Origin: Raja brachyura
Lineage: Eukaryota
Assembly (NCBI GenBank): GCA_963514005.1
Contig: OY740813.1
Span: forward strand, 14,942,001-15,006,000
Length of the DNA: 64,000 bases
Reading direction: 5' to 3'
The notes beneath the pieces are model-generated. The model was not told where the DNA came from. It worked only from the letters and a program-made list of their open reading frames with translations, and did no database searches. Both the position numbers and the translations under genes were made by a program. Positions 16,379-24,217 of the stretch are shown one piece after another. Each line of letters starts with the position of its first letter. Within the stretch, counting starts at the first letter, position 1.

Positions 16379-16480
16379 ATTTCCCACAACTCCAGGGAAG
16401 GCAGGACCATGCTGAGCAGCACTTGAAACGGAGCTTGCCTGTCAGCTCAGCTTTCTGCCCAAGCACAGCCATGGTGGAAG
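16379..16480 (+). CDS. FPGS: FPGS exon 11
   Basis: gcag|(D)FPQLQGRQDHAEQHLKRSLPVSSAFCPSTAMVE(G)|gtaacc. Phase 1-1; resembles human LPLAPVFQPTSHM. Confidence 0.9.
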
Positions 16481-16907
16481 GTAACCCTCGTGAATCCCAT
16501 GTGTACAGCTGTAACTGGCACTCCATGCTTTGTAACCTCAGGACCCTGTGCATATAACGTCCAGTTTGTGGAATTTCTAAAGTGTAGCAGTATTTCTGGA
16601 CCATTGGGGCAGCTCCAGTGATTTTCCTGCATGTTTCTGGGAGGTTGAATTGGGGCCCTTGATACAGGTCTGTCCACTCTCGAATCATTCTAGCCATGCA
16701 GCCACTGTGAAAGGATGGCTGTCTCACCATGTTGGACTTGCCAGTGTTGGGTCATTGGGCTCACAGGATGGGGAACTCGACATGGCTTTTATAATTAGCT
16801 GCTCCCTTTTCAGGAACACCCAGATGACCTTGTGCTATTTCAGTTGTAGTTGGGGAGAGTGGAGAGATGGAGGAAATCCCATTTATCTGCATTGACTTTA
16901 TTGACTA

Positions 16908-17800
16908 AGCGAGTTTGGTATTCCGACTGCGTATGCCCAGGTCATAGGTCACTAGCTATAAAGCGGTCTTGCCAACGGTGTGCAGGCTTGCGTTTCGTCC
17001 GTAGTCGGGTTGAGGGCGGCTCTCCTGGTGGTGTTGAGGCGTCCCCGTCCCCTCCCTGGTGTCCCATCCCTGTCAGGAGGTGTCGAGGGTGGCCCCGGAC
17101 TTGAGCCGGCGCTGCTGCGGCTGGTTCCAGCTTGGCTCTGCCTATCCTGCCGGGTTGGTCCCGGCAGCCCTCCACCTCCACCCCCCCTCCCCTCAATCCG
17201 ACACCGAGATCCTGCTGAAGATGAGCAGCCGCCGGCCCTGCTCGAAACCGAGAAACTCGGAGCCGCTGCAGCTGGAGACGTTCTGGTCGATGAGTCTGGG
17301 GACGGGCTCCTGCCGGCCATGGCGCAGGCCGGACGCCCGCTGGAGCTGCGGGTACTGTTGGTGATGGTGGTGCTGGCGGCAGCAGCATCCTTCTCCCCCT
17401 CCCTTGCCTAGTCTCAAACCCAGAGTCCGGGCCAGACCCAACTCCATGTCGGGGCTGAAGGCAGCCTGCGGCCCAGGCCGGTGATCTCGCTCCTCCTTGG
17501 GGTTGTGGATGAAGTGGAAGCGGGTACCATAGGGGCAGAAGCTGGTCGTGTGCAAGGTACGGCTTGTACTTGGTATGGCGGCTGGAGCCGTGGGTGCCTC
17601 CCCTGGCCTGCCTGGTATTCGCCCTCCCACCCCCGGCCCGCCTGATCTCCCCCCCCTTCGTCTCCCACACAAAAAAGGGAAAAAAACGGACCATAAGTAT
17701 ACTCACTGTATCTATAGCGCTGAGATCTATTTACTGTTACAGCTTACGACCTTTGACAAATCCCATGATTCCTTGCGTTTTTCGGAATATCGAACTGGCT
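16908..17800. mobile_element. Non-autonomous TIR DNA transposon (superfamily unassigned) carrying a host gene fragment
   Basis: 19-bp TIRs AGCGAGTTTGGTATTCCGA / TCGGAATATCGAACTGGCT (16/19 match), with TA on both sides. The left arm recurs at 118-484 and 23473-23545. Confidence 0.8.
17193..17583 (-). pseudogene. ZFP36 (tristetraprolin)-family fragment: degenerate second CCCH finger plus C-terminal CNOT1-binding motif
   Basis: SRHTKYK / frameshift / RTLHTTSFCPYGTRFHFIHNPKEER ... RRLLIFSRISVSD*. Family consensus is [30 protein letters not shown] and RRLPIFxRxSxSD/E. Confidence 0.9.
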
Positions 17801-17977
17801 TATTGCAACAATGACTATAGTTCAGAATACGTCCTTGTGATAAAACATGGATACATTCTTTGGAAAGGAATGTAAAAAAACTGCTTAAAAGTACACGTAA
17901 TTTTCATTCCAATGATGGGGTAAACCAGTTGGTGTATTTTGACAATCAAGCAGGTTTAGCGAGATTACTGCTTTCAC

Positions 17978-19277
17978 CAGGCACGTGCCGTGAGTAATTA
18001 CTCGGGGTAGATTTTTAAAAATCTTAAACTGTGCATGCGCAGATTGTTCTCTCCATAAGCTGTGGGGAGGGCAGGAGCGTTGAGAAGGAGGGGGTTGGGG
18101 ATCATGCTGGTAACTCACTCACCGCTGCCACGGCGCTTCGGGCGCGGAGCAACCACATTGTGGCTGGAGAGGGAAGTAGCTCGGGTGGCTGCGAGCGGCT
18201 GCCGGGACCTCAGCGCTTTCTGACGGCAAGCTCACCTCTGGCAGTGCTCTCCGTCTGCAAACCTCTCTCCTGCCGCTCGCCGGCCTCGCTTATGTCAGCC
18301 GCTTCCCGCAAATCCTTAAATTCCGACAGCCGAGTAACCTCAAATGGTCCCTTGATCGAGCTGTCGGAATTTAAGAATTTGCGGGAAGCGGCTGACATGA
18401 GTGAGGCCGGCGAGCGGCAGGAGAGAGGTCTGCAGACGGAGAGCACTGTCAGAGGAGAGTGGGCTGGCAGAAGGCGCTGAGATGGTGGCCGGTTCCACTG
18501 TCTGATCCTGGCGGCCGCTCACTGTGACCCGAGCTGCTTCCCTGCCCGGCACAATGCGTTGGCTCTGCACCGGGAGGTCGCTGCAAGTGAGTTGCTGGCA
18601 TGATCCCCAACCCCATCCTTCTCAACTCTCCTGCCCTCCCCGCAACTTTACCCCTGGCCAGACTCCCCACACGCTGTGAAAGGCTATCCCTCAGTACAAC
18701 AACATCGTTCTTGATGTTGCTGTACTGAGGGATAGCCAAGTCTATCTTTCTTGGCTAACAATCTTCCAACTTCGGCTTCCAAGACACACGTAAATTTTCG
18801 TGCCTTATTTTTGGGTAAAAAATAGCATCTTCATTGCTGGGAAATATGGTATTTAAAAACATATAGCACCAAGAAATCTACTTACCACATTATTGGTACA
18901 CAAACTCCATTCTTCTCTCTTTGTTTCCTAAGATAGTCTTAAGATAATGACAATCCATGTTTGAAAAACCCGCCAAGAAACCTGCGCTGCGCATGCGCAT
19001 TTGGCTACAGCGCATGCGCAGTCTGCAGTGCACGGTGCAATGGCAGAATTTCAGCTGCCTTCAGCTCCCCTTGTCATTGACGGCTTGAAACAGCGTCGAT
19101 GGCACTTTCACGTATTACATGTACTGCGAATGAAAGGCATGGAGAATTATGCCTACGGAAGAGATCGATCTCTTAGGTAGGTATAATTCTCCCATGCCTT
19201 TACTACTTATATTTAACAATTTCCATTTTATAATTTTAGTCGGGGTAGGCAATGCCTACCCTGACGGCACATGCCTG
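17978..19277. mobile_element. Non-autonomous composite hAT-type element
   Basis: TIRs CAGGCACGTGCCGT / ACGGCACATGCCTG (13/14). Perfect 8-bp TSD GCTTTCAC at 17970-17977 and 19278-19285. Confidence 0.85.
18056..18849. mobile_element. Palindromic MITE-like insert with one Tc2/pogo-like end, nested in the hAT element
   Basis: Long inverted repeat 18056-18650. The right end ...GCATCTTCATTGCTGGGAAATATGG|TA resembles CCGTATTT-type termini; no left TIR was found. Confidence 0.55.
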
Positions 19278-22330: not shown

Positions 22331-23472
22331 TACACCCACCACCACCATTCAATAAAACGGCTGATCTCTTACGTCAGTAAAGATTAATTACCAACTAAGA
22401 AAGGAGAGATGTAGAAATATGGAATGGTGGTTTACAAAAAAAAAATTGCGGGAGTAACTCCGTGGGTCAGCGAGCGTCCCTGGAGAAGATGGATGTGACA
22501 TTTTGGGTCAGGACCATTTCTTCAGGAAAGAAAGAACCCTGTTTTGAGACGTCCAGCCAGTGCAAATGTCATCTTTGCATTTGCCTTGCAGTATTCTCTT
22601 GCAATAAAGGCCACCAGACTCTTTGCTAGCTGTTCCTGCTCATCGGTTGCAGTGAATCATGTAGCAGGATGCCCACATCTCTCTGAATATCAACTCATTT
22701 CAATCTCGCATCATTGAAAAATACTCCACTTTAGTTTTTCTTCTACAAAATTGATAACCTTGGATTTGTCCACATTAAAATCCATTTGCCATGTCCGCTA
22801 ATTAACCTAGCTTGTCAACATTGCTTGCAACTTCTCTGCTGCCCCCGTGCTCCCACAGAGCCTTTGCTGGTTTTGGCAATATTCTCAGCCTTTCAATCTA
22901 ATGCTGCCCTCAACTGACTTTGTTTGTGACGTCTGGACCACTTTTCCACTTGAGTGTTTATGCTTTGGAGGGATGTTTGCTCCAAGCTATGTATTCGTTC
23001 TTCCAAGTGTTAGCTATTGCTTTTTTTTTTCGGTTGATTCTTTTAAGACAATTTTCTAATCTTTTAAAGTCATCTCACACCTTTGTGATGCGCTTTGTAT
23101 AGGCTTAAGACAATCATTTTGAGCTAAACTAAATTAATTTCAGTGCTTTATGCAACATTATTTTATGTTACAATTAATCTTCTCTGATAGCAACATGATT
23201 AAAAACATTGCTTCCTCTTCAATTCCTCCAGAGATGCTGCCTGACCTCCAGCACTTTTTTTTGTAAATTAACATCTGCATTTATTTGTGTCTCCTGCTAA
23301 TTAATACTTTCTCATTGTAGAAACTAAATGTAAAATAGCCTCAACGCAATGATCTACAAAACCAATCCTTCCATGCCCTTAGGAATTAGCCCAGCACCCC
23401 TGCTTCTTGTTCAGAGTCCTGATCTATTTGTAGATTGTTATTGTCCCACTTTTGTTAAATGCGTTGTTTATA

Positions 23473-23545
23473 AGCGAGTTCGGTATTATAACTGCGCATG
23501 CCCAGGGCATGGATCATTCAGCATAAACATTCTCGCCAGCTGAGC
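23473..23545 (+). mobile_element. Terminal fragment of the same TIR family
   Basis: TA|AGCGAGTTCGGTATTATAACTGCGCATGCCCAGGGCATGGATCATTCAGCATAAACATTCTCGCCA. Confidence 0.7.
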
Positions 23546-24217
23546 TACTGTGTGTGGGTCGCAGCTCTCTAACATACGGGACCTATTCTCACTCACTTTG
23601 AAGGAGGTGCCAAATACTCTGGTTATCCTTACTGATCTCACCACCCTGTCCATTTTGTTCTGACTTCCTTTATTTCCCGCCTGCCTGCCTGCTGTCACCA
23701 CATGCACCCGAACATATAAAACCTTTTACATAGCTGTAGTTATTAATTTTGTGAGTATCTTTTTCCAGCCTATCCCATGAATAAAACCCATTTATCCCAG
23801 ATGAAGCTTTGAGCCATGTTGTCAACGCTCTGAAATAATTGACCCTGGTGCCAATCTGTTCCTGACTTACCTTGTTGGTTGTAATTTTTAATTGAGACCT
23901 TTGCGTTTCCATAGTCCTTCCCCAGAACCTCCACCTTATATGCTGTCCTCATAATCATTTTCCACATGCGCCACAATAACCGGATCTTTATTCCAGTTCC
24001 TCTGCTATCCTGAGAAGATCTTAACTTTAGCACCAGGAATGGGACATATGATTCAGGACTCGTGCTTAACTGTGGGGTGGATAGTGGGAGGGGTTTTATT
24101 GAGCAGTGTTTTGGAGCGAAGGAGAGTTGGAATGATTTTCAGCAGGGAGGAGAGTCTATACATTGTGGGGAATTGGTGCTCTTTGACGAGAGCGTTCTAA
24201 CTCCGTTCTTGTTTCAG

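Follow-up and report, generated by a model that had tools for sequence, protein, structure and literature searches.

A probable Pack-ISL2EU transposon family carrying a ZFP36-family exon fragment in the skate Raja brachyura

The element and its surroundings

The window, a stretch of 64,000 nucleotides of Raja brachyura DNA, contains at 16907-17801 a copy of what is very probably a non-autonomous ISL2EU family (PHIS superfamily). The copy opens with a 20-bp left terminal inverted repeat (TIR; 16907..16926, plus strand) that matches the right TIR (17782..17801, minus strand) at 17 of 20 positions. The left arm (16907..17171, plus strand) is made of an ISL2EU-type terminus, 91% identical over 47 bp to that of the autonomous-type ISL2EU element L194, and of a GC-rich interior common to cargo-less members of the family, while the right arm (17670..17801, plus strand) aligns with the right end of L194 at 76% identity over 135 columns. 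Of the two copies of the AT target duplication, the left one (16905..16906) is mutated to CT and follows the conserved A of A|AT|T (16904), and the right one (17802..17803) is followed by the conserved T. A sequence-only reading of the locus had described a unit of 893 bp with 19-bp TIRs flanked by TA. Its placement holds, and arms at 16908-16926 and 17782-17800 do have TA outside both, but this TA is not the target duplication and the extent had to be redrawn to 16907-17801, in a family whose members measure about 1.0-1.5 kb.

The arms enclose, on the minus strand, a captured piece of exon 2 of a ZFP36-family gene (17172..17594; donor at G000:C40:16746586-16747136), which has suffered private deletions and aligns with the genomic donor in two pieces, 84% and 79% identical. 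The donor stop and the last 13 codons, a conserved C-terminal motif, are kept at 17193..17234 (minus strand), and a dead second CCCH finger with its lead-in is found at 17505..17584 (minus strand). The minus-strand translation quoted in the sequence-only reading was reproduced, and alignment to the donor bore out the lesions listed there: an 11-nt deletion, general to part of the family, that removes the first Cys of finger 2 and shifts the frame; a third Cys changed to Phe (codon 17517-17519); and a linker shortened by an in-frame loss of 18 nt. The deleted residues were named as TELC, where the donor has TEPC. Further losses in this copy took away the 5′ junction, some 400 bp from the right arm and, within the cargo, some 60 bp. 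When the window fragment alone was used as a Pfam and PDB query it gave zero matches, so identification of the cargo rests on the genomic donor.

Several other features lie in the same window. A GC-rich palindromic element of about 590 bp (18057-18648), with inner arms of 122 nt that are 90% complementary, is placed 250 bp to the right of the Pack element, and smaller hairpins occur at 18682-18737 and 19141-19192. About 430 bp to the left, an exon-like stretch on the plus strand (~16379-16481) shows a pyrimidine tract, an AG and a GT; if this exon is real, the Pack element would be intronic and its cargo antisense to the host gene. A scan for host-gene domains in 86 of the window's 175 frames with 75 aa or more returned two RVT_1 matches only. 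A truncated left arm of the same TIR family, with no cargo in the stretch read, occupies 100-487 in minus orientation, upstream of a putative CpG-rich first exon (~787-951) some 300 bp away. A solo left end resembling the autonomous-type ISL2EU terminus is present at 23470-23553, with no partner end in the next 1.9 kb.

Donor gene and capture junctions

A PF00642 search detected three loci with a ZFP36-type tandem finger pair, on contigs C40, C8 and C9. The family consensus is 90% identical to the C40 gene over 551 columns (39 gaps), versus 74-77%, over short stretches only, for the C8 and C9 paralogues. This comparison upholds the ZFP36-family match proposed earlier and assigns the cargo to about 550 bp of exon 2 of the C40 gene, a longer piece than the sequence-only reading had supposed. 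The C40 gene consists of two exons separated by an intron, the first short and the second open and encoding two CCCH fingers, and has a TATA box; with its conserved C-terminus it recalls the two-exon layout of ZFP36/tristetraprolin genes (PMC3546996). The cargo, unlike those genes, begins within finger 1; it reaches a C-terminal motif whose counterpart peptide in TTP binds CNOT1 (PMC9476947, PMC12350847). When the consensus is compared with 30 kb of sequence surrounding the C40 gene, nothing but its cargo part aligns, leaving aside matches below 50 nt, and the donor is therefore free of TIRs.

Regarding the identity of the donor, its best named homologues come from Rhinoraja (83%) and then from other batoids and sharks. 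A quick tree, which contains neither mammalian nor frog TTP, joins the C8 and C9 genes with ZFP36L2 and ZFP36L1 (clade support 98) and leaves the donor outside this clade with chondrichthyan proteins. Moreover, the Tis11B_N domain (PF04553) is present in the C8 gene and absent from donor exon 2. By these comparisons the donor is neither ZFP36L1 nor ZFP36L2 but the third ZFP36-family gene of the skate, likely orthologous to tetrapod ZFP36/TTP. The finger region of the donor scores higher in PDB with TIS11d than with TTP. A WDR20-family exon lies about 40 kb from the donor, a neighbourhood suggestive of TTP orthology only if that exon belongs to DMWD, which we take to be linked to TTP in human. 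A separate ZFP36-family clade of reptiles, coelacanth and ray-finned fish (P0030, P0040, P0085 and related matches) is distinct from L1 and L2 and from the chondrichthyan clade of the donor, and database names of the paralogues are inconsistent.

Across copies, the start of the cargo falls on a single base position within finger 1. Among the 5′ junctions there are 53 of cargo type, 24 of a parent type without cargo and nine others; cargo-type and parent-type junctions have their upstream element sequence in common, and a GCCG at the switch point is found in both the parent element and the donor, a microhomology of 4 nt. Two cargo 3′ ends occur: the long form takes in about 170 nt of 3′ UTR, and the short form ends 20 nt beyond the stop codon. 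The long copy L050 keeps, downstream, the element sequence where short copies resume, so the short form was likely derived from the long one. The donor AATAAA is located about 880 nt past the stop, far beyond both cargo ends, and no copy carries a poly(A) tail; nor was a duplication flanking the cargo seen in the junction listings, as judged by eye. An independent retrocopy that landed in the element is thus discounted, in agreement with the sequence-only reading, and a processed pseudogene was rejected on the missing tail and on the ends far before AATAAA, the single exon offering no intron to test. Judging from the junction, even the founding copy would have had one whole finger only, and most sampled copies have none.

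Copies, target site and autonomous partner

A DNA search of the 2.7-Gb genome from which the window comes gave 2620 candidates, of which 40 were scored and 30 loci fetched. All 30 contain the cargo between unrelated flanks; 27 start at the same terminus and 19 have the right end inside the locus, so that the association of arms and cargo is not due to chance. The arms likewise occur as a TIR pair elsewhere, with both ends visible around the same cargo, and unrelated flanks, at 39 of the 79 cargo loci sampled. A 23-mer of the cargo, with up to two mismatches allowed, matched the genome 274 times (control 0), once at the donor, which gives at least 273 copies. In a recapture comparison 11 of 24 cargo loci found independently, through a Pfam finger or the TIR, match this 23-mer, which puts the total roughly near 600, an approximate figure as the recapture sample is small and biased. 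The earlier proposal of a Pack-type element that spread ZFP36-family cargo in a chondrichthyan is borne out by these copies and by the TIR-free donor.

Copies of the family without cargo are also frequent. A 21-nt family terminus has 520 exact matches genome-wide (control 0), and among 30 loci chosen by terminus alone 25 lack coding cargo; five have it, one more carries a 3′ UTR piece, and the rest are cargo-less relatives with common ends and shuffled GC-rich interiors. In a sample of 62 aligned copies, biased by the queries used, 18 have lost neither the 11-nt nor the 18-nt stretch, eight lack the 11 nt only, 19 lack both, two lack the 18 nt only and 15 are indeterminate. The deletion subfamilies thus appear largely nested, with the window copy in the most derived deletion class plus its private losses; L040, L046 and L168 depart from strict nesting, a pattern that needs recombination or recurrent deletion. 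Other family members show further arrangements. At L154/L155 (G000:C1:89.787 Mb) the cargo 23-mer occurs twice, inverted and 160 bp apart, possibly a fold-back copy able to give rise to a hairpin RNA with ZFP36 sequence. Different internal segments, with 240 and 116 candidates, are found in sister subfamilies that have the family TIR (L099:625-850 and L099:1320-1680; G000:C1:28.69 Mb). These segments do not match the ZFP36 cargo or the autonomous element and are possible further captures; no donor was found for either, all 46 loci examined among the 40 candidates scored per search being family members.

The target site can be read from 56 two-ended elements, whose flanks are W-A-T-A and T-A-T-W. 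AT occupies both duplication positions in 45 of them, the outer pair is A-T in 35 and W-W in 51, and position -5, the third base outwards, varies (C 21, T 15, G 15, A 5). An empty-site test used six elements inserted in repeats with paralogous empty sites, the element being removed at the ends given by the sequence-only reading. Comparison of filled and empty sites gave 4 extra bases as the mode in five elements and 5 in the sixth; 4 extra bases were obtained in 24 of the 42 alignments and 2 in none. Duplication of TA predicts 2 extra bases and is therefore excluded, and with it a carrier of the Tc1/mariner type was rejected. Assembled contigs of four sequencing runs all contain the same host-repeat join, the commonest form of which, where the intervening letters are listed, has a net skip of 1148 bases of L004, equal to the element plus AT. 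Altogether the sites fit a target A|AT|T with AT duplication, the signature of ISL2EU (PMC4482050), an identical empty site being predicted for duplication-free insertion.

In this regard, ISL2EU elements have a short TIR that usually starts with GG, a transposase of about 540 aa with THAP, HTH and DDE domains, and a YqaJ gene in convergent orientation (Han et al. 2015, PMC4482050; Han et al. 2014, PMC4122938). A PF13613 search of the skate genome returned 28 HTH_Tnp_4 loci, nine of them with the TIR of the Pack family. This TIR-sharing family comprises two-ended elements of 2-4.7 kb and includes a 542-aa THAP+HTH_Tnp_4+DDE_Tnp_4 frame; at L107:619-2244 the three domains PF05485, PF13613 and PF13359 all score above cut-off. 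L194 (4.16 kb, decayed) has the exact ends of the Pack family (154 bp at 85% and 112 bp at 79% identity to the Pack consensus) together with remnants of an HTH_Tnp_4 transposase and a convergent YqaJ frame inside those ends (L194:4352-4939, minus strand; PF09588, E 2.9e-11). Seven ORF2 fragments of L135 gave no YqaJ match in Pfam. No single intact autonomous element was found, L194 being broken and L135/L107, with the open transposase, lacking a left TIR, with LINE sequence where it would be. Skate autonomous-type elements, at 3.4-4.2 kb, therefore resemble ISL2EU in length as described in PMC4482050 and PMC4122938, and in target, short TIR, transposase domains and convergent YqaJ; they differ from the usual pattern in a TIR that starts with AA (AAGC) and not with GG, a start that is usual and not defining. 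It is hence very likely that the Pack family is a non-autonomous ISL2EU carrying a host gene fragment, a Pack-ISL2EU, of which the window holds a decayed copy.

Other transposase sequences were met in the same searches. A distinct HTH_Tnp_4/DDE_Tnp_4 family without the Pack TIR (L109, L111, L113-L116 and others, for example at G000:C19:10.82 Mb) has a 457-aa open frame, and YqaJ matches lie beside three of its loci; it is probably another ISL2EU lineage in this genome. L108 (G000:C6:1.94 Mb) contains GC-rich, apparently spliced HTH_Tnp_4 frames in DNA unrelated to both transposon families and may be a domesticated transposase gene. Three YqaJ frames of 376-389 aa without stops are clustered at G000:C14:29.04-29.09 Mb (L177, L178, L191).

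Decay, proposed history and significance

Divergence between copies and consensus is 6.2% (2.9-9.0%) at non-CpG sites, with 8.9% in the window copy, and 18% at CpG sites, from which the Pack family is taken to be old, methylated and probably inactive. A raw pN/pS of 0.63-0.66 was considered as a sign of selection and rejected after the mutation spectrum was simulated and the copies chosen by Pfam were removed. Neutral simulation for the full set of 62 copies predicts an N/S of 1.94 ± 0.10 and 42 ± 7 stops, and the observed values, 1.70 and 25, both fall short by about 2.4 SD; 14 of these copies had been chosen by Pfam for an intact finger and account for part of the deficit. The other 48 have an N/S of 1.75 (neutral 1.90 ± 0.11) and 23 stops (neutral 31 ± 5.5), which is 1.4-1.5 SD low, and the copies not being independent, all of these deviations are soft. 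Non-CpG G/C substitution rates are flat over codon positions (0.059, 0.064, 0.061). These values are read as neutral decay with a small unexplained deficit and no clear purifying selection. The 11-nt deletion that kills the finger is present in at least 27 of the 62 aligned copies, and the family kept spreading after the frameshift.

The history proposed for the family starts with a cargo-less element that would have gained about 700 bp of exon 2 of the third ZFP36-family gene. The most likely route is a template switch while a break inside the element was being repaired, with the 4-nt microhomology as guide, either in gap filling or according to the fork-stalling model of PMC8277862. The chimera keeps ends common to the autonomous ISL2EU, which the THAP-HTH-DDE transposase of the latter would recognise, and mobilisation in trans by this transposase may have moved it by cut-and-paste into W-AT-W sites, with AT duplication, several hundred times. 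Successive source elements would have lost the 3′ UTR, then 11 nt of finger 2 and then 18 nt of the linker, with the cargo as a passenger and the copies eroded at CpG sites and decaying about neutrally. We hold this account as a whole, from capture and trans mobilisation through serial source elements to the passenger cargo and the decayed copy in the window, to be highly probable.

Alternatives exist for the entry of the cargo and for the mode of insertion. The cargo might have entered as a fragment of reverse-transcribed ZFP36 mRNA, by LINE insertion or RNA-templated repair, and then spread with the DNA transposon; it lies wholly in exon 2, with no intron to reveal the template, and LINE remnants are common in and around family members. 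Such an origin is unlikely in view of the absent poly(A), of a longest cargo that stops about 170 nt into the 3′ UTR when AATAAA is some 880 nt past the stop, of the microhomology with the parent element at the 5′ junction, and of the lack of a cargo-flanking duplication by eye. As for insertion, a Spy-like element without duplication, whose ends would include the outer T and A and which would insert between WA and TW, predicts the same empty site as AT duplication and would suit a non-GG terminus atypical of ISL2EU. This mode has the least probability of those considered, the partner having THAP and YqaJ, ISL2EU traits absent from most Spy (PMC4122938), and Spy inserting in AAATTT where the third base out is mixed here. 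Spy in its strict form (AAA|TTT, no THAP, single frame) was rejected on the same grounds.

A different question is whether any of the copies work now or did so in the past, either as a ZFP36 of about 175 aa with one finger or with dominant-negative action, or through small or antisense RNAs regulating the donor. An ATG of element origin stands two codons ahead of the cargo in the ZFP36 frame, and the founder frame would have run for about 175 aa through half of finger 1, the whole of finger 2 and the C-terminal motif. The cargo is co-directional with YqaJ as it lies in the autonomous element, with a retained 154-bp right end upstream of it, and the slight N/S and stop deficit points the same way. 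The ATG is found in 42 sampled copies, 31 of which keep the C-terminal DNA and seven of these are open to the motif, close to what random indel phase would be expected to leave; only one of the seven has a whole CCCH finger, and that one has a frame-shifted patch. Many parent-type junctions read ACG at this position, so the ATG probably arose by CpG decay. NCBI models a copy of the little skate, Leucoraja erinacea, from the transposon ATG as "mRNA decay activator protein ZFP36-like" (XP_055493223.1), but this model keeps finger 2, frameshifts before the C-terminal motif and runs into the left arm of the element. No near-identical counterpart was found in R. brachyura among 150 scored of 3595 candidates, the best full-length one being 56% identical with a stop. 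Together with the finger-killing deletion and the equal rates over codon positions, these observations make function in any copy rather improbable. The same low probability is given to the fuller version of a mobile chimeric gene, in which the transposon ATG, possibly with a YqaJ promoter, drives a one-finger CNOT1-binding fragment whose protein or small RNAs act on the donor. The copies look like decaying junk and not working genes. In run X20, guessed to be RNA, a donor-like contig has a depth of 1255 and a junction-bridging one 14.7, contigs that show neither strand nor level; run X18, also guessed to be RNA, was flagged as probably DNA. The little skate model indicates that the Pack family is present in more than one skate species, and DNA contigs of two organisms each also bridge one junction.

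Gene fragments travel as passengers of non-autonomous DNA elements also in plant Pack-MULEs, in other Pack-TYPE elements and in the Helitrons of Xenopus and bats, which transpose by rolling-circle replication; unlike the skate family, Pack-MULEs and Helitrons belong to other superfamilies, and the skate fragment is present in hundreds of copies. In Xenopus, Heli1Xen1 has copied an armc5 fragment 17 times (PMC12001565). Among animal Pack-TIRs, the survey of Tan et al. 2021 (PMC8277862) counts 370, four of them multicopy and 87% in hAT or Tc1/mariner, a multicopy example being hAT-N8_XT, with a CAPSL 5′ UTR piece in three copies. The skate family agrees with those multicopy cases in having GC-rich non-TE host sequence between TIR arms, an unlinked donor, short breakpoint microhomology and repeated transposition with distinct flanks, and departs from animal Pack-TIRs of that survey in its at least 273 copies, ISL2EU carrier, coding cargo, subfamilies and chondrichthyan host. 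The word "shark" does not occur in the main text of PMC8277862, and PMC10115646 contains none of the terms ZFP36, Harbinger and DNA transposon. In the literature covered, with few subscription papers and with Repbase, Dfam and the supplementary list of Tan et al. outside its scope, no report was found of this Pack family, of an ISL2EU with captured gene sequence or of skate ISL2EU elements. The earlier suggestion of an undescribed system goes too far, animal Pack-TIRs having already been described (PMC8277862) and no function having been found for these copies; what is new here lies in the unusual copy number, the carrier superfamily and the host lineage.

These copies show a coding fragment multiplied into the hundreds by a TIR transposon of a vertebrate, some hundredfold more than the multicopy example of that survey, and one genome preserves the parent, donor, junction, autonomous partner and subfamilies. 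ISL2EU has been described as undetected in elephant shark, gar and coelacanth and a teleost-specific gain was proposed (PMC9179366), against which the skate elements would extend its range to cartilaginous fish. If the improbable mobile chimeric gene were true, it would be a source of new genes comparable to Pack-MULEs or an epigenetic conflict over a vertebrate regulator of mRNA decay. Such copies could also inflate gene-family counts or confuse read mapping, one being already annotated as ZFP36-like in the little skate. Finally, the family makes it testable in a vertebrate whether a gene with several hundred methylated, transposon-borne look-alikes is itself silenced.
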